From positions 34,884 to 98,883 of the forward strand of contig JAUYKM010000018.1 of the NCBI GenBank assembly GCA_030699125.1: 64,000 bases of DNA, read 5' to 3'. The notes under the pieces were generated by a model. The model saw only the letters and a list, made by a program, of their open reading frames with translations, searched no databases and was not told where the DNA came from. Source of the stretch: Candidatus Daviesbacteria bacterium (lineage in GTDB: Bacteria; Patescibacteriota; Microgenomatia; Daviesbacterales; UBA10151). Shown piece after piece: positions 3,406-45,953 of this stretch. Position numbers and translations under genes: made by a program. Positions within the stretch are counted from its first letter, which is position 1. Each line of letters starts with the position of its first letter.

Positions 3406-3435
3406 GAAGCCATTTTAACAAGAACAAGGAGGAAT

Positions 3436-3453
3436 GTCATTCCTGCGAAAGCA
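3436..3453. other. Perfect hairpin ttcctgc-gaaa-gcaggaa (GNRA-like loop) in the spacer between the module-copy-1 operon and alaS.
   Basis: 7-bp perfect stem with a 4-nt gaaa loop read directly. No U-tract, so it is not a canonical intrinsic terminator. Confidence 0.4.
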
Positions 3454-3467
3454 GGAATCCAATTAAA

Positions 3468-6892: not shown

Positions 6893-6946
6893 AATGATTT
6901 AAATCATTGAATCAGAGATTATATAAGCTTATTCTCTGATTTTTTT
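6893..6946. terminator. Tandem inverted repeats at the HIT gene 3' end: a 16-nt perfect palindrome aatgatttaaatcatt, and a 9-bp stem aatcagaga/tctctgatt followed by TTTTTT (plus sense). Putative bidirectional terminator.
   Basis: Read directly. The second stem spans the HIT stop codon. The T-run follows on the plus strand and an A-run precedes it. Confidence 0.35.
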
Positions 6947-7387
6947 AGCCAGTTCTGCTAATTTGTTATCATCCTCTCTTTTATAATCATTAGAGGAAAT
7001 GTACCCTTCATATCTTGTAAAGTACTTTCTGACATAATTTTTTGAGGTTATTCTTTTCCATTTTTCCATTTTAGTTCCATGCATGGGGAATAATTTAGCA
7101 TGGACATGATCAATTGCAAAACCTTCAAAAATCATACCGGTCCTACCTACATCCTCCAATTTCTCATCAAGTAATTTGGCTACTTTTTTAGTTGCAATAA
7201 CCAAGTCCCTTAAAACATCATCTTCTAAATCAAATGCATAACTTGGGTAATGTTGTTTTGTAATTACTACTGAAAATCCTACTGTATTTGGGAAAATTGA
7301 TAAAAAGGCTAAATGTTTTTCATCTTCCCATATTAAATGTGAAGGGGCTTCTCCTTTAACAATTTTGCAGAATATACAATCATTCAT
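6929..7387 (-). CDS. HIT (histidine triad) family nucleotide hydrolase
   Basis: 152 aa. N-terminal CIFCKI and histidine triad AIDHVHAKLFP. Confidence 0.85.
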   Translation of the reverse strand: MNDCIFCKIVKGEAPSHLIWEDEKHLAFLSIFPNTVGFSVVITKQHYPSYAFDLEDDVLRDLVIATKKVAKLLDEKLEDVGRTGMIFEGFAIDHVHAKLFPMHGTKMEKWKRITSKNYVRKYFTRYEGYISSNDYKREDDNKLAELAKKIRE

Positions 7388-9531: not shown

Positions 9532-11202
9532 CTATACTTCTACCACCATCGGTAAAATCAGAGGCCTTCTTTCTGTAATCTGATCAAAATATTTATCTAA
9601 AGAGTCCTCGATCATTCTTCTGATAAATCTCCAGTCGGAAATTTTATGAGAATGTTTTTCCAAAGTTTGTTTAACAATTAAACGTGCTTCGTTCAATAGA
9701 TCCTCCGCAATCTCCCCAAAGACAAATCCCCTGGAGATCACATCAGGTTCTGAGGTCAATTTACCTGTTTGTTGATCTATAGAAACAACAACCACCACCA
9801 CGCCTTCCTCACTCATTTTTTGTCTGTCTCTTAAGACAACACTGCCAATATCACCAATCCCCAATCCATCCACAAAGACATTTTGCACCTCAATCCTTCC
9901 TTCTATTCTAGCTTGTCCATTTTTAATATGTAAAATTTCTCCATCCATCATTTTCAAAACATGATCCTGTTCATAGCCTAACTCAAACATTTGATTTCCA
10001 AATATATCCATGTGTCTAAATGTGCCTCCAATCGGCATTAGGTATTTTGGTTTTATTAAGTTGACCATAAGCTTCAACTCTTCCGATGCAGCATGACCGG
10101 ATACATGAAGATCTGAGGTAATAGCAGAGTAAATCACGTGTACCCCCAATCTGCTTAGGGAATCAATTAAAGCATTCTGGGCAGATTCCGTAGAGGGAAT
10201 AGGATCGGCCGAAAAAACTACTGTGTCACCTTTTATAAGTTTTACCTGTTTATGTTCTTCATTGGCGAGTCTAACCAAAGAGGAGTCAGACTGACCCTGA
10301 GCGCCGGCAATTAAAATCAGTAACTTTTTGGGAGCATGCGAGGAAATAGCATCAGAGGCAACCACCAGTCCTGCCGGAACAGCCAAATACCCTAAGTCTC
10401 TGGCAATTTGAAAGTTTTTCTCAAATGAACGGCCGACCACAGCCACCTTCCGTCCCAATTTTTGGGCCACATTTATTGCTTGTTGCATCCGGGAAACATT
10501 TGATGAAGTCATGGTGATAAACAGTTTACCTTGAGTCTCTTGTGCTGCTTTTTCAAAAGTTGGCTCAATTGATTTTTCCGATTTATTAAAACCGGGTTTA
10601 TCAATCCTTAAACAATCAATTAAAAGAAGCAGTACCCCTTCTTTGCCTAAACTGGCAGCTTGGGCCACATCAGTGACCTGTCCGGAAACAGGAGTCCAGT
10701 CAATCTTAAAATCTGCCTGGTGAATAATTAAACCAACCGGGGTCCTAATGACAATGCCTGTTGAATCTGGTACTGAGTGTGAAACCTGATAAAATGAAAC
10801 CTTAAATACCCCTAGATCCAATTTTTGATCAATTTTAACCTCAATAACTTTATTCTTAGGCAAATTATGTTCAATAAATTTAGACCTGATAAATCCGGCT
10901 GTTAATCTTTGGGTATAGATGGGTGCGTTTAGTTCCGGCCAAATAAAAGGCAATCCACCAATATGATCCTCATGTCCGTGAGTGATGATAATCCCTCTAA
11001 TTTTATGCTTTTTATCACGAAGGTAGGAAATATCAGGGATAACCAGATCTACTCCCGGCATGGCCTCATCAGGAAAACCTACCCCGCAATCCACAATCAG
11101 GATATCATCTCCATATTCATACACATACATATTTTTGGTGACATCACCCACACCACCTAAGGGAATTAATTTGAGAGTCTGATGATCATGGGCAGCATTC
11201 AT
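9532..11202 (-). CDS. rnj: Ribonuclease J (metallo-beta-lactamase/beta-CASP RNase)
   Basis: 556 aa. HGHEDHIGG motif and RNase J domain order. Confidence 0.9.
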   Translation of the reverse strand: MNAAHDHQTLKLIPLGGVGDVTKNMYVYEYGDDILIVDCGVGFPDEAMPGVDLVIPDISYLRDKKHKIRGIIITHGHEDHIGGLPFIWPELNAPIYTQRLTAGFIRSKFIEHNLPKNKVIEVKIDQKLDLGVFKVSFYQVSHSVPDSTGIVIRTPVGLIIHQADFKIDWTPVSGQVTDVAQAASLGKEGVLLLLIDCLRIDKPGFNKSEKSIEPTFEKAAQETQGKLFITMTSSNVSRMQQAINVAQKLGRKVAVVGRSFEKNFQIARDLGYLAVPAGLVVASDAISSHAPKKLLILIAGAQGQSDSSLVRLANEEHKQVKLIKGDTVVFSADPIPSTESAQNALIDSLSRLGVHVIYSAITSDLHVSGHAASEELKLMVNLIKPKYLMPIGGTFRHMDIFGNQMFELGYEQDHVLKMMDGEILHIKNGQARIEGRIEVQNVFVDGLGIGDIGSVVLRDRQKMSEEGVVVVVVSIDQQTGKLTSEPDVISRGFVFGEIAEDLLNEARLIVKQTLEKHSHKISDWRFIRRMIEDSLDKYFDQITERRPLILPMVVEV

Positions 11203-11211
11203 AGGTTTAAT

Positions 11212-13536
11212 TTAAAAATTGCTGTCTCTTTTTTTGAATTTAGAGAATTTGGCTCTGGTTCTATCAAAAGGACCCTTGCTGCCAAAATCTCTTTTGGGAA
11301 ATCTGTCTCTTCTGGGGCGAAATCCATCTCTTCCGCTACCAAAAGGTCTTCTCTCACCTCTACCCATACCTTGTGGTCTTCCCTCAGACGGACGGAAGCG
11401 AGGTCTACTCTCAGTTTCCATCTTTCTATCTTCACCAAAAAGCATTGACAATCCTACCTTTCCTTCTGGAGAGACATCAGTTACTCTGACCTTGACTTCC
11501 TGTCCCTCAGAGACAACATCCTCTGCTTTCTCAACACGTCCCGGAGCCATCTGAGAAATATGCACCAGACCATCTTTACCAGGAGCAATTTCTACAAAAG
11601 CTCCGAACGGAGCCAATCTGACCACTTTACCCGTAAATTCATCTCCTATATTAATCTCCTTAAACATACCATTGATCGCATCCAAAGCCTGATCAACACT
11701 TTCACTCCTTACAGCCGAGACCATCACTGTACCATCATCCTCGATATCAATCTGAGCTCCTGTTTTATTAATAATAGAATTAATAGTCTTACCTCCTGAA
11801 CCAATTAACAGTCCAATCTCTTCCGGCTTAATATGTATAATCTCCACTCTGGGGGCATGGGGAGACAAGGGACCTGCTGATGGAATCACCTTCTCCATTT
11901 CTTCTAAGATTTTTAATCTGGCATTTTTACCTAATCTTAAAGCTTCCTCAATAATTTCAAAAGTTAATCCTTCTAATTTTGTATCCATTTGAATTGCGGT
12001 AATACCATTTTTAGTACCGGCCACTTTAAAATCCATTTCTCCATAAAAATCCTCCACTGCCCTCATATCTGTCACCACCTGGAATTTTCCACGTCCTGAG
12101 CCTGTCGAAGGATTATCATCGGAAAAAAGTCCCATGGCAATTCCGGCAACCGGGGCAATAAGTGGTACTCCAGCATTTAGAAGAGCTAGGGTGGTTGAAC
12201 AAACTGAGGCTTGAGAAGTTGAAGCATTGGCTGCCAAAACCTCCGATACTACCCTGATAGCATAGGGGAATGTATTCTCATCTGGAATAACAGACACCAT
12301 AGCTTTTTCCACCAAGGCCCCATGTCCTACGTCCCGTCTGTTGGGAGCACCAATCCTTTTTACCTCACCTACGGAAAAAGGATTAATACTCATATTATAG
12401 TGATGCATGAATCTTTTTTGCCTTTCTCCTTCCATGCCGTCTAATGTTTGCTGCAGAGACGGAGCACCAAGGGTGGCAACTGATAAAACTTGGGTATCAC
12501 CCCTTTGGAAAAGAGCTGATCCGTGGGTTCTGGGTAAAAGTCCCACCTCCATTGACAGAGGTCTCACCTCATCCATGGCTCTGCCATCAACTCTTTTGTC
12601 TTTTCCTAAGACTGTTTCATGTACAATCTCTTTAGCCACCTTATCGAAAATTCCGGAAATTATCTCGGCAGTTAAGGTCTCTTTATATTTTTCTGCCAAC
12701 TCTCTTTTAATCAGATTTCCTGTTGCTTCATGCCAGGGATGTTCATTATCAAATAAAGCAGCTTCAATCCTCTCTTTAGTCAGTTTAGTTACTTCCCCAA
12801 GCAAGGCTTCTTCCAAAGCATCTTCCAAATGTGAAATTTCTTGTTTATCCTTTCCTGCTTCCTTAGTAAATTCTTCAATTAGCTCAATAATTGGTTGGGC
12901 ACTTTTATGAGCTTCCTTAATTCCTTCAAAAACAACTGAATCATCTATTTGCTTGGCTCCTGTTTCTATCATGACCACTTTATTTTTACCTGAGGCCACC
13001 ACCAGATCCATATCCAGATGTTCCATCTGGGAGATGGTTGGATCAACTACTAGATTTCCTTCCTTACTGCCGATTCTTATTCCGGCAATAGGTCCATTCC
13101 AGGGAACAGAAGATATAGAAAGTGCAGCGGATGCTCCAATTAGACCTACCAAGTCAGGATCATTGTCTTGATCAATTGATAAAACAGTTAAAATTACCTG
13201 TACCTCATGCGCTTTAAAATCTTTAGGGAAAAGTGGCCTGATGGAGCGGTCTATTAATCTGCCTGTTAAAACTGCTTCATCAGTAGGTCTTGTTTCTCTT
13301 TTAATGAATCTGGATGAAGAAATCCTCCCTCCAGCATAATGTTTTTCCACAAATTCCACAGAGAGCGGAAAGTAGCCAATATCCTCCAGTAGTGGCTGGG
13401 TGGCCACAGTTGCTAAAATCACTGTTTCTCCCCATGACACTACAACAGATGCATCTGCTTGCAAAGCCAGCTTACCGGTCTCCAGTTTTAACTTTCGACC
13501 GTTTAAATCAATTTCTTTAGTTACCATTTTACTCAT
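11212..13536 (-). CDS. pnp: Polyribonucleotide nucleotidyltransferase (PNPase) with an R/G-rich C-terminal tail
   Basis: 774 aa. Two RNase PH domains plus KH and S1 domains, N-terminus MSKMVTKEIDLNGRKL, and a C-terminal RG-rich extension. Confidence 0.95.
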   Translation of the reverse strand: MSKMVTKEIDLNGRKLKLETGKLALQADASVVVSWGETVILATVATQPLLEDIGYFPLSVEFVEKHYAGGRISSSRFIKRETRPTDEAVLTGRLIDRSIRPLFPKDFKAHEVQVILTVLSIDQDNDPDLVGLIGASAALSISSVPWNGPIAGIRIGSKEGNLVVDPTISQMEHLDMDLVVASGKNKVVMIETGAKQIDDSVVFEGIKEAHKSAQPIIELIEEFTKEAGKDKQEISHLEDALEEALLGEVTKLTKERIEAALFDNEHPWHEATGNLIKRELAEKYKETLTAEIISGIFDKVAKEIVHETVLGKDKRVDGRAMDEVRPLSMEVGLLPRTHGSALFQRGDTQVLSVATLGAPSLQQTLDGMEGERQKRFMHHYNMSINPFSVGEVKRIGAPNRRDVGHGALVEKAMVSVIPDENTFPYAIRVVSEVLAANASTSQASVCSTTLALLNAGVPLIAPVAGIAMGLFSDDNPSTGSGRGKFQVVTDMRAVEDFYGEMDFKVAGTKNGITAIQMDTKLEGLTFEIIEEALRLGKNARLKILEEMEKVIPSAGPLSPHAPRVEIIHIKPEEIGLLIGSGGKTINSIINKTGAQIDIEDDGTVMVSAVRSESVDQALDAINGMFKEINIGDEFTGKVVRLAPFGAFVEIAPGKDGLVHISQMAPGRVEKAEDVVSEGQEVKVRVTDVSPEGKVGLSMLFGEDRKMETESRPRFRPSEGRPQGMGRGERRPFGSGRDGFRPRRDRFPKRDFGSKGPFDRTRAKFSKFKKRDSNF

Positions 13537-13571
13537 AAATTTTTTTAGGGGGTTTGGAAACTGTGGAAGAG

Positions 13572-13656
13572 ATAATTAGTCTTCAGCTTTCAGTCTTCAG
13601 TTATCAGATTTTTTGTTTCCCAGTCTGATAGCTGATAGCTGACGTCTGATTGCTAC
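13572..13656. repeat. Heptamer-periodic imperfect palindromic element A in the rpsO-pnp spacer (the pnp 5' leader). Its core is near-identical to element B at 40984..41061.
   Basis: On the minus strand it reads (NNNTCAG)n - A-rich loop - (CTGANNN)n - CTAATTAT. A 29-31 nt block ctgaagactgaaagctgaagactaattat is identical to element B in the same orientation relative to the downstream gene. Confidence 0.7.
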
Positions 13657-13688
13657 TTAACTCTTTGCAATCTCCAAAACCCTGCCCA

Positions 13689-13958
13689 CTATCTAGATAA
13701 ACCAAGCTTATTAATTACCATTGTATATCTTTCATTATCTTTTTTAAATAAGTATTGCAAAAGTCTTCTTCTTTTATTAACCATAGATAACAGCCCACGG
13801 CGTGAGTGTATATCGTGTGGATGTTCTTTTAAATGAGCAGTTAAATTCTTAATCTGTTCAGACAAAAGAGCAACCTGAACCTCAGGAGATCCGGTATCAC
13901 CGGACTTGGTGGCAAAACCCTTAATGATTTGCTGTTTTACTTTTGGATCAAGTGGCAT
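13689..13958 (-). CDS. rpsO: 30S ribosomal protein S15
   Basis: 89 aa, a typical S15 sequence. In the conserved rpsO-pnp arrangement. Confidence 0.95.
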
Positions 13959-17341: not shown

Positions 17342-18811
17342 CTATATCACTCTAAATGATTCCACTATATCCCCAATTTGAAAATCCACAGGGGGATTAA
17401 ACAGCATGCCGCAATCATTCCCTTTTTCCACTTTATTAACCTCATCCTTAACTTTTTTTAAGGATTTTAATTTGGTTTCACCTATAATCTCTCCTTCCCT
17501 CACCACTCTGATCCTTTGTCCTTTGGCAATCTCTCCTTCCACCATCCTGCATCCGGCAATCCTTTCATCCTTTCCGTGAGGAAACTCGGCAATAATATTG
17601 CCCTTTCCCAAAACTTCCTCCAACTGCCCTACCTCCAGTAAAGTATTGACTACTTCCTCAACATCTTCTAAAAGCTCATATATAATATTGTAGGTTCTTA
17701 TTAAAACTTGTTCATTTTCAGCCAATTTTTGGGCCAGTGGAGCCACTTTCACATTAAAGCCAATGATAATTGCTCCCACAGTGGAGGCCAATTTAACATT
17801 TTCTTCTCCAATCTGCCCTGTAGCTGTAAAAATAAAATTAACTATTTTTCTCTCTTCATTGAATTTCTCCAAAGAGGCCTCAATTGCCTCCAGTGACCCT
17901 TGCTTATCAGCCTTAATGATTACCTTAAGAGTCTTATCTTTTTCGCTCTTAAGCCTATCTACTAAGCTGGCAGCAGCTTCTTTGATGGATGATTCAACTG
18001 CTTCTTGTCCTAGAGTGGCACCTACCTCCGGCACAGTTTCCAAACCCAAAACCTCAACAGACATGGATGGACCTGCCTGATCCAGGGGAGAACCATTAAA
18101 ATCAAACATCCCTTTTATTTTTCCTTTTATTCCCCCTACCACAATTTGATCTGCCCGCTTTAATGTACCATTTCTCACTAAAATGGTAGCTATGGGGCCT
18201 TTAAATTTATCCAAATTAGCCTCAATCACTACTCCAGCAGCAGGTAATGAAGGATCACCCTTTATTTCATGCAGCTCGGAAACTAGTAGTATCACCTCCA
18301 AAAGCTTATCCACCCCTTCTCCTGTTTTGGCAGAAAGAGCAACCAGAGGTACATCTCCTCCATACTCCTCTAAGTTTACTTCTCTATCAGTTAATTGTTT
18401 TTTGATCTTTTCTAAAGAGACTTTTAGGTTTAATCCCGGCAGGTCAATTTTATTAACAGCCACAATCATAGGGACTTTAGCTGCCTGAATATGCTTGAGG
18501 GCCTCAACAGTTTGGGGCATGATCCCATCATCTGCTGCCACCACCAGTATAGCAATATCAGCCACCTTAGCACCTCTGGATCTCATTTTCTCAAAAGCAG
18601 CATGACCGGGAGTGTCTATGAAAGTGATAAGTGGAGAGTGCTGAGTGCTAAGTCCACTTTGCACTTCTATCTGGTAGGCTCCAATATGCTGGGTGATACC
18701 GCCATGTTCTTTAGCAGCCACTGAGGATTTTCTTATAAAGTCAAGGAGGGTGGTTTTACCGTGGTCTACGTGACCTAATATAGTTACAATTGGTGGTCTT
18801 GTTTGTTCCAT
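17342..18811 (-). CDS. infB: Translation initiation factor IF-2 (short form lacking the N-terminal domains)
   Basis: 489 aa. G domain [19 protein letters not shown] and NKID. In the conserved nusA-infB order. Confidence 0.9.
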
Positions 18812-24888: not shown

Positions 24889-24976
24889 AATGATTTGTAA
24901 CAAGTACAGTAAAGGTAACAAGGCACAAGTTATTTGTATTTTAACTTGTCACTTGTCACTTGTTACTAGTTACTTC

Positions 24977-29110: not shown

Positions 29111-30889
29111 TTATGATTTCAAAATACTCAAAAATGCCTCCTGGGGGATTTCGACTCTACCAATCATTTTCATCTTTTTCTTTCCCTTTTTCTGCTTCTC
29201 AAGCAGCTTATCTTTTCTGGTTCTATCCCCTCCATATAGCTTGGCTGTGACATCTTTTCTAAATGGTGAGATGGTTTCTCTGGCAATAATATTTCCTCCA
29301 ATTACTGCCTGAATTGCTATGGCAAAATTTTGCCTGGGCAACACTTCCTTTAATTTTTCCACCATTTTTCTTCCAAAACTTTCCGCCTTTTCCCGAACCA
29401 CAATGGTGGAAAGTGCATCCACTTTTTCTCCTGCCACCAAAATATCTAACCTTACTGCTTCCACCTCTCTATATTCTAAAAATTCCCAATCTAGCGAGGC
29501 GAAACCAGAGGAAACTGATTTTAGCCGATCATAAAAATTGGTAATCATCTCAGAAAGCGGCATTTCATACTTAAGTTCCACTTGAGTACCAAAATATTGA
29601 GTATTGATAAACTTCCCCCGTCTTTCTGTTACCAAATCCATTACATTACCAATAAAATTTTGTGGAATAAAAATTTTTAAAGATACCCAGGGTTCCTTAA
29701 CATTTTTCATAAGTGAGGGGTCAATTTCAGAAGGATTATGAATTAGCTTTCCCTCAATCTCATATTCCACTGAAGGGATAGTGGCAATCAAATCTACTCC
29801 CGCCTCAGTTGATAATCTTTCTTGGACAACCTCTGCATGCAGAAGACCCAAAAATCCACACCTAAAACCATTTCCTAAAGCCTGAGATGATTCCAACTCA
29901 TAAGATAAAGAGGGATCATTTAGTCTAAATTTTTCCAAAGCCTCTTTGGCTTCAATGTATGAATCCTGCTCGATGGGAAAAAGTCCTACATAAACCATAG
30001 GTTTTACCTCTTTGTACCCTGGAAGAGGTTCAACATCCAACTCAGTAGAAATAGTATCTCCTACTCTCACCTTATCCGAATCTTTTATACCAGTAGCAAT
30101 ATAGCCAATATCTCCTGCATAAAGTCCGTCATTTAAAGTTAGCTCCGGCGCAAAAAAACCAGTTTCTAAGATATGTCCCTCAGCCTTATTTTGCAGAAAA
30201 CAAATTTTTGCGTTAACTGGTGGCGTTTGACCTTCCATAATTCTCACCTGGGCAATCACTCCCTTAAAAGGATCGAAAAAACTGTCAAAGATTAATGCTT
30301 TCAATGGACACCCTTGGGGTGTATTTGTATTGACACCTGCGGATTTTGGGGCTGGGATACGCTCAATAATGGCTTTCAATAATTCCTCCACACCTTTTCC
30401 TGTTTTTCCAGATACAAGTAAAATCTCATCTTTATTAAACCCAAATGTTTCTATTAGTTGTTTTTTTGTGGATTCAATATCTGCATTTGGTAGATCAATT
30501 TTATTAATAACAGGAATTAAAGTCAGATTCTGCTCCAGTGCAGCCAGACCATGAGCTAAAGTCTGAGCCTGAATCCCCTGAGTCGCATCTACCAAAAGTG
30601 TGGCTCCCTCAACTGCTGCCAAAGCCCGAGATACTTCATACGAAAAATCCACATGGCCCGGGGTATCAATTAAGTTTAGGGTGTAGGGTATAGCGTCTAG
30701 GGTATAGCTAAGGCGCACTGGCGCGAGCTTAATGGTAATTCCCCGCTCCCGCTCCAATGCTAGAGAGTCCAGAAGCTGCGGCTTCAGTTTTTCCTTGGGG
30801 ATAGTGCCGGTAATTTCCAGCAGTCTGTCTGCCAGAGTGGATTTACCGTGATCAATGTGGGCAATGATGGAAAAATTGCGAATGTTCAT
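29111..30889 (-). CDS. lepA: Elongation factor 4 (LepA)
   Basis: 592 aa with NFSIIAHIDHGKSTLADR and DTPGHVDF. Contains a small in-frame tandem duplication YTLDAIP/YTLNLID (DNA tagggtatagc x2). Confidence 0.95.
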   Translation of the reverse strand: MNIRNFSIIAHIDHGKSTLADRLLEITGTIPKEKLKPQLLDSLALERERGITIKLAPVRLSYTLDAIPYTLNLIDTPGHVDFSYEVSRALAAVEGATLLVDATQGIQAQTLAHGLAALEQNLTLIPVINKIDLPNADIESTKKQLIETFGFNKDEILLVSGKTGKGVEELLKAIIERIPAPKSAGVNTNTPQGCPLKALIFDSFFDPFKGVIAQVRIMEGQTPPVNAKICFLQNKAEGHILETGFFAPELTLNDGLYAGDIGYIATGIKDSDKVRVGDTISTELDVEPLPGYKEVKPMVYVGLFPIEQDSYIEAKEALEKFRLNDPSLSYELESSQALGNGFRCGFLGLLHAEVVQERLSTEAGVDLIATIPSVEYEIEGKLIHNPSEIDPSLMKNVKEPWVSLKIFIPQNFIGNVMDLVTERRGKFINTQYFGTQVELKYEMPLSEMITNFYDRLKSVSSGFASLDWEFLEYREVEAVRLDILVAGEKVDALSTIVVREKAESFGRKMVEKLKEVLPRQNFAIAIQAVIGGNIIARETISPFRKDVTAKLYGGDRTRKDKLLEKQKKGKKKMKMIGRVEIPQEAFLSILKS

Positions 30890-32626: not shown

Positions 32627-32920
32627 ATGCCTATTATTAAATCAGCCATTAAAAAGGTTCGAAAAGATAAAATAAGAACTGCCCGCAATAAAAAACGGGA
32701 GGATACCCTAAAAGATCTTATCAAAAAGGTGAGAAAGTCTAAATCTGCTAAGGACCTGCAAGCTGTTTATTCAGCCTTAGATAAGGCAGCTAAAGTTAAA
32801 TTAATTCATCGAAACCGTGCTGCCAGACTAAAATCCAGATTGTCCAAAGGTGTTAAAGAAACTATCGCAATAAAGAGTCAACTTAAATCGCCTAAAAAAG
32901 TAGCCAAAAAGAAAGCCTAA
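32627..32920 (+). CDS. rpsT: 30S ribosomal protein S20
   Basis: 97 aa, MPIIKSAIKKVRKDKIRTARNKK. Confidence 0.85.
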   Translation: MPIIKSAIKKVRKDKIRTARNKKREDTLKDLIKKVRKSKSAKDLQAVYSALDKAAKVKLIHRNRAARLKSRLSKGVKETIAIKSQLKSPKKVAKKKA

Positions 32921-32964
32921 TTTTCCCCTTTTCCCTTTACCCTTTTCCCTGGTAGAATATTCAT
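32921..32964 (+). repeat. Polypyrimidine heptamer tract (TTTTCCC-like x4) followed by TAGAAT 6 nt before the ATG of the pilN-like gene (leaderless-type promoter context)
   Basis: Sequence ttttcccc ttttccc tttaccc ttttccc tgg tagaat attc ATG, read directly. Confidence 0.5.
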
Positions 32965-35292: not shown

Positions 35293-35922
35293 AAATTCTG
35301 CCTGGTCTTTTTCTAGGAGTCCGCTTTTGATCTTAAAATCTATCTCTATAATTTTTTTATATAAATTTTTAATTTTTTCCAGATCAAATTTTTTCTTTTG
35401 TCTTTCCAGTTTTTCTTTCACAAATTGCGGAGCATTTTTTGGGGTTACTACTAAATTTCTTAATAAATAAAAAATCATGGTGATAAAATATTGAATTTCA
35501 AAGCCTGAGGATTTCAATCTATCTATATCCAGAAATGCTTTTTTATTACCTTCTGCTAAAGAATCCAGAAAAGGAAAAACAGATACCTCTCTTGCTTCCT
35601 CAAAAAACTCAATCTCTCCTTTTTTTTTCACCCATTCCATGATCGGCTTTTTAAAAGAGACTTCATGATCAAACCAAAAAATTAGTTGGTAGTTGGTAGT
35701 TGGTAGTTGGTAGTTGGGCAAAAAATCTTCTGGTGGATTTTCTAAGATGATCAGTTTCTCTTCCGAAAATAATAGATTGGTCATGAGAGCTGCATTAATA
35801 CTTTCTAAATCTGCCTCTTTTTCAAAAATCACCACATTATTGGAATCAAAATCTTTTTTAATATTAACTAACCTAGTTCTTGATGCATCAATTGCCGGGC
35901 CGTGGAGAAGATGGCTCTTCAT
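35266..35922 (-). CDS. Putative DNA polymerase III delta subunit (HolA-like). Contains a 7-bp tandem repeat.
   Basis: 218 aa, weak HolA-like N-terminus MKSHLLHGP..LIILENPPE. Low-confidence product call. Confidence 0.35.
   Translation of the reverse strand: MKSHLLHGPAIDASRTRLVNIKKDFDSNNVVIFEKEADLESINAALMTNLLFSEEKLIILENPPEDFLPNYQLPTTNYQLIFWFDHEVSFKKPIMEWVKKKGEIEFFEEAREVSVFPFLDSLAEGNKKAFLDIDRLKSSGFEIQYFITMIFYLLRNLVVTPKNAPQFVKEKLERQKKKFDLEKIKNLYKKIIEIDFKIKSGLLEKDQAEFLLVNLFTH
35684..35711. repeat. Tandem 7-bp repeat (AGTTGGT)x4 inside the HolA-like CDS (encodes NYQLPTTNYQL)
   Basis: agttggt agttggt agttggt agttggg, read directly. The unit length is not a multiple of 3. Confidence 0.8.
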
Positions 35923-39081: not shown

Positions 39082-40983
39082 TTGTCAAAGAAAGTTCCCG
39101 ATGTTAAGATAATGTCCGTGTCAACTCTCCTTTCTGATCTAAATTCAGATCAACAACAAGCTGTTAAACAAACTGAAGGCCCGGTTTTAATTTTGGCTGG
39201 TGCCGGCTCCGGCAAAACTAAAGTTTTAACATACAGGGTGGCTTATTTAATTTCCGAAAAGAAAATCCCTCCAGAAAATATTCTTACATTGACATTTACA
39301 AATAAGGCAGCCGGAGAGATGATGGATCGGATCCGCCGACTCATCACTCAGTACTCATCACTTAGCACTCAACCAGTCATGGGCACATTTCACTCATTTT
39401 GCGCCAAAATTTTGCGCCGTGAAGGTAAAGTTTTAGGACTCCCCCCGGGCTTTGCCATTTATGATGAGTCTGATGCGCTAGATGCCATCAAAGAAGCCAT
39501 GGGAAATATTAATATTCCCATTCAGAAAACCTCCCCTTCTGCTGTAAGAAATACTATCTCCGGAGCCAAAAATGAGTTGATCTCCAGTTTGGAATATCCA
39601 AAATATGCCCGTGGTTTTTTCCAGGAGCAAGTTGCCAAAATTTATTTAGAATATCAAAAAATTTTAGAAAGAAATCATGCTTTAGATTTTGATGATCTGC
39701 TGCTTAAAGTCATCCGGCTTTTTCAGACTGAGCCTACAATTTTAACTAGGTATCAAATCCAGTTTCGTTATATTTTAATTGATGAATATCAGGACACCAA
39801 TAGTGCCCAATATTTAATCTCTAAATACCTGGCAAATCGTCATAAAAATATCTGCGTGGTAGGTGATGCCAGCCAGTCGATTTACTCCTTTAGAGGTGCA
39901 GATTTTAGAAATATTGTTAATTTTGAAAAAGATTATCCTAATGTCAAGATTTTTAATCTGGAGCAAAATTATCGATCCACCCAAAATATTTTGGATGCTG
40001 CTCATAGCGTTATTTCCAAAAATAAATCTCACCCCATCTTAAAGCTTTGGACGCAAAAAGAGGGAGGAGAAAAGATAGAAGTAGTAGAAATAAGAAATGA
40101 GATAGAAGAAGCCTTATTTATTCTTTCTCAGCTTAAAAAACCTTTTTCAAATTATGCCATCCTTTATAGAACTAATGCTCAATCCCGCTCTTTAGAGGAA
40201 CAATTTTTAAAATCTGGTATCCCTTACAGATTAGTGGGGGGGGTTTCTTTTTATGCACGGAAGGAAATCAAAGATGTGTTGGCATATTTGAGACTGATAC
40301 AAAATCCTGATGATTCTGTCTCTAAAAAACGCGCTGAAAAAATTGGCAAGGGTAGGCTGAATAAATTGATGGAATTTTATACTGAAATATCAAATAATCT
40401 GGGTGCACATTCCACGCTAGAGCTGCTTGATTTGATTTTACAAAAAACCGGCTATTTAGCTTATCTTGATGATGGCACAGATGAAGGGAAAAACAGAGTG
40501 GAAAATGTTAAAGAATTAAAATCTGTAGCTGAGGAATTTCCTAATTTAGTGGAATTTTTGGAAAACGTGGCTCTTGTCGAAGCTGCTGATACACCGACCC
40601 ACCGGAAAACCGATACACTGAATAAAGATGCTGTAACTTTAATGACTCTACATAGCGCCAAAGGTTTGGAATTCCCCACCATTTTTATGATTGGCATGGA
40701 GGAGGGATTATTCCCTCATTCCAGATCCATGCTTGATGTAAGGGAACTAGAAGAGGAGAGAAGGCTCTGCTATGTAGGGATCACCCGGGCCAAAGATAAA
40801 TTATACCTAACTTATACCAGACAAAGACTTTACTTTGGCACCAGATCTAATAATTTAGTTTCTAGATTCCTGTCGGATATCCCCGAACACCTTATCAGCT
40901 CCAATGCCACTTTTAAAGATTCTGACCAATTTTTGGATGACGTGGATGTTGGAATAGACCAGGAAGAATGGTTAAATACATAA
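39082..40983 (+). CDS. uvrD: ATP-dependent DNA helicase UvrD/PcrA family
   Basis: 633 aa. Walker A AGAGSGKT and helicase motifs DEYQDTN and VGDASQSIY. Confidence 0.9.
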   Translation: MSKKVPDVKIMSVSTLLSDLNSDQQQAVKQTEGPVLILAGAGSGKTKVLTYRVAYLISEKKIPPENILTLTFTNKAAGEMMDRIRRLITQYSSLSTQPVMGTFHSFCAKILRREGKVLGLPPGFAIYDESDALDAIKEAMGNINIPIQKTSPSAVRNTISGAKNELISSLEYPKYARGFFQEQVAKIYLEYQKILERNHALDFDDLLLKVIRLFQTEPTILTRYQIQFRYILIDEYQDTNSAQYLISKYLANRHKNICVVGDASQSIYSFRGADFRNIVNFEKDYPNVKIFNLEQNYRSTQNILDAAHSVISKNKSHPILKLWTQKEGGEKIEVVEIRNEIEEALFILSQLKKPFSNYAILYRTNAQSRSLEEQFLKSGIPYRLVGGVSFYARKEIKDVLAYLRLIQNPDDSVSKKRAEKIGKGRLNKLMEFYTEISNNLGAHSTLELLDLILQKTGYLAYLDDGTDEGKNRVENVKELKSVAEEFPNLVEFLENVALVEAADTPTHRKTDTLNKDAVTLMTLHSAKGLEFPTIFMIGMEEGLFPHSRSMLDVRELEEERRLCYVGITRAKDKLYLTYTRQRLYFGTRSNNLVSRFLSDIPEHLISSNATFKDSDQFLDDVDVGIDQEEWLNT

Positions 40984-41061
40984 AGAGCTATCAGTCATCA
41001 GACGTCAGTCGTCAGACAATCAGAAATCTGAAAGCTGAAGACTGAAAGCTGAAGACTAATT
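40984..41061. repeat. Heptamer-periodic imperfect palindromic element B immediately upstream of the 3D-domain gene ATG. Paralogous to element A at 13572..13656.
   Basis: Plus strand reads (NNNTCAG)x5 - aaat - (CTGAAAG/CTGAAGA)x4 - CTAATT - ATG. The last ~31 nt are identical to element A read toward pnp. Confidence 0.7.
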
Positions 41062-41754
41062 ATGGAAAGATATCTGGGAATCTTATTAATAATAGGACTC
41101 ACCATTTTTGCCGGTTCTTTTTGGCAAAATCCCGTTATTCTGGGGGAATCCACAGGCCCTTCCCAAATTCTGCCAATTAGTCAGCCTGTTCTCACTCAAT
41201 CTGCCTTTAGTGAAAAATTGGAAGAAGATATAGAAATAATTCCTAAAAAAACAGTCTATGAGGATGACCCGGAGACTGAAGCAGGAATAGAAAAAATATT
41301 AGAAGAAGGCGAAGATGGTAAAAGGGTTAAAATTATCAAAATTACCTATTATAAAGATGGCGATGAATATGATAGACAAATTGTTTCTACTGAAACCACG
41401 CCAGCCAAAAATAAAATCATTTCAAGAGGCACTAAAATTATCTGGAAAACCTTAGCTACCGCTGATGGAGAAATTAGGTATTGGAAAAAATTACGGGTCT
41501 ATGCCACTCATTATGATTCCAGATGTCCAGGATGTAATGAATGGACAGCCATTGGTATGAGAGCCGGCAAAGGCGTTATTGCTGTTGATCCCAAAGTTAT
41601 ACCCTTAAGATCTAAAGTTTATATTCCGGAATACGGGATGGCCATAGCCGGAGATACTGGCGGAGCCATTAAAGGAAATATTATAGATTTAGGCTTTGAT
41701 GATGCCAGAACAGCCGGCTGGAGAGCAAAATTTGTAGATATTTATCTCTTATAG
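41062..41754 (+). CDS. G5 domain + 3D (MltA-like) domain cell-wall protein (YabE/RpfB-like)
   Basis: 230 aa. Signal/TM helix, a G5-like segment, and a 3D domain YATHYDSRCPGCNEWTAIGMRAGKGVIAVDPKVIP...AGDTGGAIKGNIID. Confidence 0.75.
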   Translation: MERYLGILLIIGLTIFAGSFWQNPVILGESTGPSQILPISQPVLTQSAFSEKLEEDIEIIPKKTVYEDDPETEAGIEKILEEGEDGKRVKIIKITYYKDGDEYDRQIVSTETTPAKNKIISRGTKIIWKTLATADGEIRYWKKLRVYATHYDSRCPGCNEWTAIGMRAGKGVIAVDPKVIPLRSKVYIPEYGMAIAGDTGGAIKGNIIDLGFDDARTAGWRAKFVDIYLL

Positions 41755-44924: not shown

Positions 44925-45953
44925 ATGGAACTGCGAGTGATTCCGCCGGGCCAAAAATATCAATATAATAAATTTGTCACTCATGTAATCCAATCTTGGC
45001 AATGGGGAGATTTCAGAAAAGATTTAGGCTTACCGGTGTTAAGATATGGCATTTATCACAAAGGTCAAATATCACGGGTATTTCAGCTGACCTTACATAA
45101 AATTCCCTTTACTAAGAAATATGTTGGCTATCTGCCAAAGGGTCCCATGATAGATCAAGAATTAGTCCAAGCGTTGAAACAAATAGGTAAACAGGAAAAT
45201 TGTGCTTTTATTAAAGTTGAACCCGATGTGAAACTACCAACTACCAACCATCCGCTTCGCGAGGCGAGCCAACTACTACCAACTGAATTCATTAAATCTC
45301 CCAAATCTCTTTTTACCAAATATAATTTTGTTTTGGATATTACTAAATCAGAAGAAGAACTTTTAAAAAATACGCACCCAAAAGTAAGATATAACATCCG
45401 TCTGGCCCAAAAATATAAAGTAACAATTAAGCAAGGATTTAACGAAAAGGCTTTTGAAACATATTTAAAACTATATTTTCAAACTGTTAAAAGGCAGGGT
45501 TATCTGGGACATAATGAAACTTATCATAAAAAGGTTTGGGGTATTTTAAAAAATGCCAATATGGCAAGGCTTCTTATCGCCTACTACAAAGATGAACCCT
45601 TGGCTTGTTGGATGCTTCTTAATTTTCACGATACCCTCTATTATCCTTATGGCGGGTCCTCAATGGAGTTTAGAAATGTGATGGCCTCAAACCTGTTGGC
45701 TTGGGAAGCAATTCTTTTGGGTAAAAAAATGGGGCTGAAGAAATTTGATATGTGGGGAGCTTTAGGACCCAATGCTTCCCCCAAAGACCCTTGGTTCGGA
45801 TTCCACAAATTCAAACAGGGATATGGAGGGGAGTTGGAAGAATATATTGGCACTTATGATTATGTTTTTGACTGGCCGCTCTATTTAACATTTACTGCTA
45901 TAGATAAATTAACCCCGCTAAAAGTTTTCTTGTTAAAATTGCTAAAGAAATAA
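44925..45953 (+). CDS. FemAB-family peptidoglycan interpeptide bridge aminoacyltransferase
   Basis: 342 aa, FemX-like N-terminus and overall length. Contains ctaccaactaccaacc (LPTTN). Confidence 0.7.
   Translation: MELRVIPPGQKYQYNKFVTHVIQSWQWGDFRKDLGLPVLRYGIYHKGQISRVFQLTLHKIPFTKKYVGYLPKGPMIDQELVQALKQIGKQENCAFIKVEPDVKLPTTNHPLREASQLLPTEFIKSPKSLFTKYNFVLDITKSEEELLKNTHPKVRYNIRLAQKYKVTIKQGFNEKAFETYLKLYFQTVKRQGYLGHNETYHKKVWGILKNANMARLLIAYYKDEPLACWMLLNFHDTLYYPYGGSSMEFRNVMASNLLAWEAILLGKKMGLKKFDMWGALGPNASPKDPWFGFHKFKQGYGGELEEYIGTYDYVFDWPLYLTFTAIDKLTPLKVFLLKLLKK

Follow-up and report, generated by a model that had tools for sequence, protein, structure and literature searches.

The spacer between rpsO and pnp, the genes for ribosomal protein S15 and for the enzyme polynucleotide phosphorylase (PNPase), contains in Candidatus Daviesbacteria, a lineage of the candidate phyla radiation (CPR, or Patescibacteria), a conserved hairpin that is a real, uncatalogued pnp-leader RNA present throughout the group. 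In the 64-kb stretch of DNA from this lineage that we analyzed (hereafter, the window), the tip of the hairpin carries a palindromic array of 7-nucleotide (nt) units. The spacer probably holds a nested pair, namely, a conserved control hairpin of the pnp leader and, within it, a tolerated, lineage-specific heptamer expansion of the tip. The initial annotation of the window had offered the heptamer array itself as a possible regulatory structure; the conserved part is instead the outer hairpin, and most relatives have a short tip without heptamers.

The window was assigned to Candidatus Daviesbacteria from its PNPase homologues, which are named Daviesbacteria PNPase; the best of these is 97% identical, and all others are about 80% identical or lower. 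For comparison, we used the 97% strain (L001) and 80 pnp-surrounding loci (L002-L081) from species-representative genomes, so that the covariance search covered 1.44 Mb (the window plus 81 loci) and the repeat census 1.36 Mb of relatives. The rpsO-pnp spacer of the window is 152 nt long (13537-13688, minus strand). The synteny of the two genes is kept in almost all fetched loci; their spacers measure from 4 to some 450 nt and reach about 900-1200 nt in loci with an inserted gene. Adjacency of pnp and the RNase J gene rnj was considered as a conserved operon and rejected: the two adjoin only in the window and L001, whereas in the other loci rnj follows on the same strand at a distance of 1-4 kb.

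A hairpin of the shared form rUUUGGrrAUUG-CAAAGAG-(variable tip)-CUCUUCCA-CAGUUUCCAAA was recognized by pattern in 58 of 71 rpsO-pnp spacers. The basal hairpin spans about 56-69 nt and consists of an invariant 10-bp, G.U-rich lower stem (UUGGrrAUUG/CAGUUUCCAA), a small internal loop that is also conserved, a middle and an upper stem that covary, and a tip that is free to vary. An alignment of the 47 short-form (basal) orthologues (A1) served as the basis of a covariance model (R1). This alignment includes 22 invariant columns, and 9 of the 20 pairs in its consensus fold show compensatory double changes (such as AGAG/CUCU to AUUG/CAGU); the G.U pairs of the lower stem change only to A-U. All sense-strand matches to R1 in the 1.44 Mb lie just upstream of pnp; the great majority of loci have one, and none has more. 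The match in the spacer is the sole sense-strand match in the window, and in it the model treats the heptamer block as a tip insertion. Sense scores are roughly twice the antisense scores (67 versus 29 bits in the window), and the basal hairpin of L070 folds at -29.5 kcal/mol in the sense and -21.3 kcal/mol in the antisense orientation. Given the reliance of the lower stem on G.U pairs and this difference in bit scores, the conserved structure is an RNA on the pnp-sense strand. No Rfam 15 family reached its gathering score anywhere in the 64-kb window, which likewise gave no tRNA, rRNA, or riboswitch match; the spacer and a basal orthologue yielded only chance-level microRNA and small nucleolar RNA matches at E values up to 10.

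The initial annotation had located the element in the pnp leader, where the RNase III hairpin of Escherichia coli lies, and this location is borne out. The E. coli pnp leader contains a long stem-loop whose cleavage by RNase III triggers PNPase-dependent decay (Robert-Le Meur & Portier 1992, as summarized in PMC5029454). As in E. coli, the Daviesbacteria hairpin lies between rpsO and pnp and, in most relatives, downstream of a pnp-specific promoter, in a group that keeps both RNase III and PNPase (PMC12641178). A -10-like box (mostly TGnTATAAT or TATACT) precedes the hairpin in 39 of the 58 relatives and in 28 of these ends 16-18 nt before TTGG. By this spacing, transcription from what is in most relatives a dedicated, extended -10 promoter would begin at about the base of the hairpin. 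Between the hairpin and the pnp ATG there are 7 to 138 nt across relatives; given the promoter spacing and this variation, the function of the hairpin appears tied to the 5' end of the transcript rather than to the ribosome-binding region. There are also differences from the E. coli leader: no sequence or covariance-model similarity and no Rfam match, a hairpin at about +1 in most relatives (rather than +20) with no promoter in the window itself, and no Shine-Dalgarno sequence in front of the Daviesbacteria pnp. Moreover, CPR bacteria lack RNase E, so that downstream decay would need RNase J. RNase J, RNase III, and PNPase are reported to be the only three main RNases on which CPR bacteria depend, and the genes rnj, rnc, and pnp are retained in at least 90% of CPR genomes (PMC12641178).

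By position and architecture, the conserved hairpin most likely does in Daviesbacteria what the leader stem-loop does in E. coli. The double-stranded 5' structure would protect the mRNA until RNase III cuts it, so that the PNPase level would feed back on its own message, and, in the genome represented by the window, this feedback would extend to the adjoining RNase J gene. An outer extension adds to the roughly 20 consensus pairs of the basal hairpin, giving a duplex of at least about 20 bp, large enough for a potential RNase III substrate. Cleavage of this leader by RNase III and the ensuing autoregulation are what we infer by analogy with E. coli.

The array itself is a 7-nt-periodic palindrome with the sequence described in the initial annotation: on the minus strand, 13572-13659 reads (nnnTCAG)x4, a 17-nt loop, (CTGAnnn)x4, and then CTAATTAT. 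The pattern TCAGN3TCAGN3TCAG, with at most one mismatch, has 11 matches in the window versus 0.3 in shuffled sequences, and all 11 fall within two elements, the pnp-leader array and a second copy discussed below. The tail CTAATTAT is indeed present, but alignments of the basal hairpin assign it to the conserved structure; accordingly, the array proper ends 43 nt before the ATG, or 35 nt if CTAATTAT is counted. Folding, proposed as a check on both leaders, gave stable structures in each. The whole 152-nt spacer forms one long hairpin of -49.8 kcal/mol (z = -5.9) with about 48 pairs. The predicted architecture of 4-bp helices separated by 3x3 loops turned out only roughly right: the helices are periodic, but RNAfold pairs several of the nnn positions, giving helices of 4-7 bp and internal loops from 1x1 to 3x3. 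The tip of the window hairpin folds better in the antisense orientation (-32.3 versus -22.0 kcal/mol in the sense one); an antisense-RNA reading of this difference was rejected, as it is not consistent across orthologues.

Among the relatives, the outer hairpin and the heptamers part ways: orthologous conservation, on which the initial annotation had made its claim depend, holds for the former (the 58 spacers above), whereas the latter are absent from most relatives, including the closest ones at about 80% identity. The tip is short in 47 relatives (for example, UUAGGUAGC-loop-GCUAAUUACC), and long 7-periodic tips of several unit kinds are found in about 11 genomes. TCAG/CTGA tips occur in the window, L001, L029, L030, L033, and L034 and, in shorter form, in L026, L009, and L010; TAGC-type tips occur in L021, L067, and L011 and a TTATCGT-type tip in L007. 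On the PNPase tree, the expanded tips are interleaved with short-tip sisters, a patchy distribution. Five TCAG-type tips align in register with equal unit numbers. In L034, CTGA is replaced by CTGT in all four 3' units and TCAG by ACAG only in the two loop-proximal 5' units, which reads as a snapshot of concerted change with partial compensation. Across ten expanded orthologues, the folding energies of the tips show no consistent strand preference.

Other heptamer hairpins were seen in the same leaders. In six spacers (L003 1754-1890, L013, L020 9867-10001, L043, L059, and L077), a different long hairpin that is 7-periodic throughout stands in place of the canonical one; it has a TAGA/TCTA core (ATAGATG ATAGAAT GTAGAAG ... 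CTATCCT CTATCCT), appears about 90% similar by eye in L003, L020, and L043, the sisters of which keep the canonical hairpin, and R1 scores weakly (22-27 bits) on five of the six. Another heptamer hairpin (units GAGTCTA GAATCGA GAATCTA GAGTCAA ... AGACTCT TGACTCT AGCGACT AGTCACT) lies between the conserved hairpin and the pnp ATG in L005, L015, L026, and L079 and before other genes in L011 (1354) and L036 (1100). Near start codons, a small dispersed palindrome, GATTCC(n)...(n)GGAATGACA with an A-rich run after it, occurs in the window at 3406-3467 on the minus strand and in the pnp-leader tails of L010, L012, L018, L019, L023, L029, L033, L062, and L081.

Heptamer-periodic palindromes are a pervasive class in these genomes, a description closer to the evidence than a shared regulatory structure. 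In the window, 7 stood out as the sole strongly enriched period in a scan for periodicity, with 66 windows, compared to 0-4 for periods 3-6, 8-13, and 15 and 28 for period 14, the double of 7. The 1.36 Mb of the relatives contains 86 period-7 regions, against none in shuffled sequences and 0-28 for other periods; an inverted partner lies close to 67 of the 86, and 55 are palindromes located outside long open reading frames (ORFs). The typical layout is a stop codon, the 5' arm, the loop, the 3' arm, and an ATG. For 31 intercistronic heptamer hairpins, the advantage of the sense fold was not significant (19 versus 11, p = 0.13), and selection for a sense-strand RNA was rejected on this count. 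The lack of a consistent strand preference, both here and in the tips, fits a palindrome at the DNA level. One such hairpin fills the hrcA-grpE spacer, a placement that assumes the grpE ATG at 24889, inferred by sequence reading, since the mechanically called ORF (TTG, 24921) would cover the 3' arm. Stop codons in all frames beside the start codon were considered as the cause of the polarity of the arms and rejected as not general, given that the hrcA-grpE hairpin has its stops in the 5' arm. Arrays are also found in frame inside the genes for IF-2, LepA, a UvrD-like helicase, and a FemAB-family protein and inside a holA-like ORF.

The second TCAG/CTGA copy in the window bears out the earlier claim of a partial copy in front of an unrelated gene. 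It contains the exact 29-mer CTGAAGACTGAAAGCTGAAGACTAATTAT of the pnp leader (13572-13600, minus strand; 41035-41063, plus strand), which occurs nowhere else in the window even with three mismatches; the shared 3' half had been given as 29-31 nt, and its length is 29 nt. The copy folds at -28.2 kcal/mol (z = -3.7), and its array, with CTAATT, extends as far as the ATG at 41062; in both copies, the CTGAnnn arm faces the downstream start codon. The 78 nt are missing in three relatives that are about 80% identical (L084, L085, and L086), where 0-4 nt separate the helicase stop from the ATG (TAG|ATG, TGAaaATG, and TAAcattATG), and are present with two substitutions, in the 3' arm, in an approximately 95% identical strain (L082 and L083). 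By this comparison, copy 2 is a lineage-specific insertion exactly between TAA and ATG. Its ends, AGAG ... CTAATT, look like the sequences flanking the pnp tip, which suggests copying from the pnp locus. Copy 2 was rejected as a second regulatory hairpin for want of an R1 match, and the proposal that one regulatory structure had been recruited to two genes finds no support, given this result and the absence of the insertion from the three relatives.

We infer that the array arose by expansion of an unconstrained tip in 7-nt units, nnnTCAG on one arm and CTGAnnn on the other, as one case of palindromes that settle in hairpin tips, stop-to-start junctions, and protein surface loops. Growth would probably proceed by slippage of 7- or 14-nt units, intrastrand template switching or selection against arms left unpaired would keep the two sides matched, and the spread between loci and genomes would probably involve recombination. 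With the array, the RNA stem grows from about 22 bp to about 50 bp, interrupted by small loops at regular intervals; the array would be tolerated rather than serve as a conserved operator.

A non-autonomous mobile element of the MITE (miniature inverted-repeat transposable element) or REP (repetitive extragenic palindromic) kind, inserting as a unit into hairpin loops and stop/start junctions with the help of a transposase encoded elsewhere, is an unlikely source of the TCAG/CTGA hairpins. It would account for the clean insertion of copy 2 and its polymorphism between relatives, the exact 29-mer common to both copies, the patchy occurrence on the PNPase tree together with the similarity of the TAGA-type hairpins of L003, L020, and L043, and the density of at least 14 copies in 34 kb in some phage contigs. 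However, no terminal inverted repeats distinct from the array, target-site duplication, or transposase gene were seen next to either copy, and, specifically, the junctions of copy 2 show no target-site duplication when compared with the empty sites of the relatives. Furthermore, there are only two copies in 64 kb, not identical over their full length and with 5' arms that differ in unit order; unit numbers grade continuously from 1 to 5 between genomes, as slippage would produce; and the match of the ends of copy 2 to the conserved flanks of the pnp hairpin suggests copying from that locus. The earlier suggestion of a small mobile or repeated element targeting leaders comes nearer to what was observed, with heptamer palindromes genome-wide in this lineage and TCAG/CTGA hairpins across phyla and in phages; no transposon hallmarks were seen.

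TCAG/CTGA hairpins are indeed found far beyond Daviesbacteria. A metagenome scan for TCAGx3 ... CTGAx3 gave at least 120 matches (L087-L206), nearly all on high-GC contigs from outside Daviesbacteria. Viral contigs contain at least 120 stretches with TCAG before CTGA (L207-L326) and 7 in the mirror arrangement, with the CTGA arm first (L327-L333); this mirror control was run for the viral contigs only, so that the metagenome contigs show abundance alone. Each of the copies (at least 14 in 34 kb) in the phage contig IMGVR_UViG_3300045936_000120 lies between a stop codon and the next ribosome-binding site or ATG. The viral polarity bias is not explained by thermodynamics and could point to a shared mechanism. 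It is conceivable, although we regard it as improbable, that the (nnnTCAG)n-loop-(CTGAnnn)n hairpins form one cross-phylum intergenic class of fixed polarity, present in a CPR bacterium, in many high-GC bacteria of soil and sediment, and in the phages of the latter, with a dedicated mechanism of origin or recognition, as opposed to independent slippage in each lineage. Candidates for such a mechanism would be an unrecognized enzyme generating or mobilizing heptamer palindromes or a conserved factor for which they act as signals of intercistronic processing or coupling, and the pnp leader would then be an element of this class grafted onto, and maintained in, a regulatory hairpin.

Somewhat more doubtful still is a functional protein-binding array, with UCAG/CUGA in RNA or TCAG in DNA bound by an S1, KH, cold-shock, or CsrA-like multimer and with pnp and the G5/3D-domain gene downstream of copy 2 forming one regulon, as proposed for the TAACTGA repeats of Beggiatoaceae. 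In Beggiatoaceae, Cyanobacteria, and Bacteroidetes, these direct repeats are found right next to start codons (MacGregor 2015, PMC4679880). They share with the arrays described here a 7-nt unit, a CTGA core, a mostly intergenic location, a forward orientation (a few nt from the start codon in Beggiatoaceae) at start codons with no ribosome-binding site, and a tolerance of the reverse orientation inside ORFs (PMC4679880). CTGATAA, one of the units of the strictly 7-nt-periodic pnp-leader array, is a rotation of TAACTGA, and the orientation of the CTGAnnn arm toward the start codon in both copies, up to the ATG in copy 2, follows the same layout. The constant unit number and arm asymmetry of five distant TCAG-type leaders and the viral polarity bias (at least 120 versus 7 mirror stretches) would also suit a bound array. 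Against this stand the absence of the array from the pnp leader, and of any spacer at the copy 2 site, in relatives with about 80% identical PNPase, the different cores found in the same places in other genomes (TAGC, TTATCGT, and TAGA), the in-frame arrays in the IF-2, LepA, UvrD, and FemAB genes, and the fact that no candidate binding protein was identified. The TAACTGA repeats themselves differ from the arrays analyzed here in that they occur as direct repeats, with only one inverted case in 170 sets (PMC4679880), whereas the arrays here are paired into hairpins and both copies have a TCAG arm; in that the units CTGAAGA and CTGAAAG differ from TAACTGA at two positions; and in the host, here a low-GC CPR bacterium.

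An intrinsic terminator or attenuator of rpsO or, alternatively, a DNA-level operator or cruciform is highly improbable: the window hairpin is long and stable, begins 5 nt after the rpsO stop (R1 match end 13683), and is palindromic at the DNA level, but the terminator reading was rejected because the stem is followed by CCCCCTAAAAAAATTT, with no U-tract, and no terminator-like site was called in the spacer, and most relatives have a promoter between rpsO and the hairpin, and the operator reading was rejected because of the G.U-dependent lower stem and the strand-biased R1 scores.

Several observations weigh against the nested pair that we favor, a pnp-leader control hairpin with a tolerated heptamer tip. 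Both strands of the lower stem are invariant beyond the needs of pairing, which points to sequence-specific recognition by some partner, not necessarily RNase III or PNPase. The window and L001 have no promoter between rpsO and the hairpin, just weak promoter-like matches inside rpsO, so that the hairpin of the window may be internal to an rpsO-pnp transcript rather than 5'-terminal. The TCAG-type tips keep their unit number and arm asymmetry (pyrimidine-rich versus AAG/AGA spacers) at PNPase identities of about 70%, which hints that the array could itself be under selection. Slippage with template switching is a proposed mode of growth, modelled on repeats in general. Finally, the check for an RNase III gene that had been advised returned none: a regular-expression signature applied to six-frame translations found no RNase III in the 64-kb window or in the 81 pnp loci, a search confined to these loci with the rest of the genome outside it.

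Features of the pnp leader, its neighbors, and the heptamer arrays in the 64-kb window
Feature	Position	Strand	Evidence and remarks
rpsO (ribosomal protein S15)	13689-13958	-	Pfam Ribosomal_S15, 1.1e-34
pnp (polynucleotide phosphorylase)	11212-13536	-	Pfam RNase_PH, KH, S1, and PNPase domains
rnj (RNase J)	9532-11202	-	Pfam RNase_J_b_CASP, RNase_J_C; 9 nt downstream of pnp stop
Conserved pnp-leader hairpin bearing the heptamer array at its tip	13548-13683	-	R1 67.1 bits, E 8.5e-15, full model length
Lower stem, 5' strand TTTTGGAGATTG	13668-13679	-	TTGGrrATTG (near-)invariant in 47 orthologues; G.U pairing with CAGTTTCCAA
Lower stem, 3' strand CAGTTTCCAAA	13553-13563	-	CAGTTTCC 100% conserved in A1, following AA nearly so (second-last at least 90%); pairs with 13668-13679
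5' heptamer arm AATCAG ACGTCAG CTATCAG CTATCAG	13625-13651	-	Sequence reading
Apical loop ACTGGGAAACAAAAAAT, 17 nt	13608-13624	-	Sequence and fold
3' heptamer arm CTGATAA CTGAAGA CTGAAAG CTGAAGA	13580-13607	-	Sequence reading
CTAATTAT, 3' strand of conserved upper stem (consensus CTAATTAC), outside the heptamer array proper	13572-13579	-	Basal-hairpin alignments: GCTAATTACC at same position
Copy 2, 78-nt TCAG/CTGA hairpin	40984-41061	+	Fills spacer from UvrD-like helicase stop TAA (40981-40983) to ATG 41062 of G5/3D-domain gene; Pfam identities
Heptamer hairpin, units GTRACAA / ACTTGTn	24890-24976	-	hrcA-grpE spacer; -24.9 kcal/mol, z -4.3; Pfam HrcA, GrpE
IF-2 array	18619-18666	-	In frame
LepA array	30669-30712		In frame; same G-domain position as IF-2 array
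UvrD-like helicase array	39337-39374		In frame
FemAB-family array	45232-45290		In frame; loop differs between window, L082, L084, and L085
holA-like ORF array	35683-35717		In frame; TAGTTGG x5, perfect

Further observations were made outside the pnp leader. In many relatives, a heptamer-periodic hairpin of a different unit family in each lies directly 5' of the RNase J ATG, where the window has only 9 nt. These sites are L009 14173, L011 14740-14834, L012 13439-13547, L014 11431, L016 13429, L033 10593, L052 4627, and L053 12657; the gene that follows starts with MK(S/M)FKP and is rnj where checked (for example, in L011). In the G domain of IF-2, the loop from HIGAYQ to ITFIDTPGH has 22 residues in 32 genomes and 24-49 in 11 others. 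Loop entries are the window, L006, L007, L008, L010, L015, L021, L023, L025, L026, L033, L044, and L067; the extra residues are encoded by visibly palindromic or heptamer-periodic DNA in the window, L026, and L044, and the loop of the window is 7 residues longer than that of L001, at 92-94% nucleotide identity. At 32916-32957, the window contains TTTTCCC x4, a direct-only array without an inverted partner that stops 7 nt short of the start codon (ATG) of a PilN-domain gene, in a layout like that of the Beggiatoaceae TAACTGA repeats. The leader of L001 has a history of its own: downstream of a DUF433/DUF5615 gene pair, a divergent rpsO (85% nucleotide identity) is followed by an 88-nt remnant of the 3' end of a window-type rpsO just before the hairpin (6893-7277). 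Because the divergent gene is followed by this remnant abutting the hairpin, a recombination breakpoint can be placed at the pnp leader of this strain.

Heptamer repeats are known from other prokaryotes, among them the short tandemly repeated repetitive (STRR) sequences of cyanobacteria. Among the long simple repeats of prokaryotes, heptanucleotide ones are reported to be the most common, and polymerase slippage is the suggested cause (Mrazek 2007, as cited in PMC4679880), and GGGNATC repeats occur in Xanthomonas and Nostoc (PMC4692102). As far as these sources describe them, the three groups of repeats resemble the Daviesbacteria arrays in the dominance of period 7, the many unit families, the intergenic bias, the preference for about four units, and the proposed slippage; they are set apart by their descriptions as tandem direct arrays, unlike the two-arm palindromes at hairpin tips and stop/start junctions of a CPR host reported here. 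Hairpin elements between co-directional genes also include the intercistronic RNase III sites of phage T7. The REP, REPIN (paired REP), and MITE palindromes (e.g., PMC3116915) are comparable as dispersed hairpin-forming elements in such positions, but the Daviesbacteria arrays consist of short periodic units and have no conserved full-length consensus, flanking tetranucleotide, or gene of the RAYT (REP-associated tyrosine transposase) type in view. We found no paper on such repeats in CPR bacteria or on two-armed heptamer hairpins.

For genome annotation, heptamer arrays are not to be taken as locus-specific regulatory sites. The array extends the known prokaryotic excess of 7-nt repeats to the CPR, in a palindromic form that colonizes hairpin tips, stop/start junctions, and the loops of essential proteins (IF-2 and LepA). 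The pnp hairpin is an uncatalogued cis-acting RNA that, in the genome analyzed here, precedes pnp and rnj together. A double-stranded leader on pnp-rnj would, if this reading is true, tie RNase J, RNase III, and PNPase into one feedback node, and such a node would provide a concrete handle on the control of RNA decay in an uncultivated lineage.

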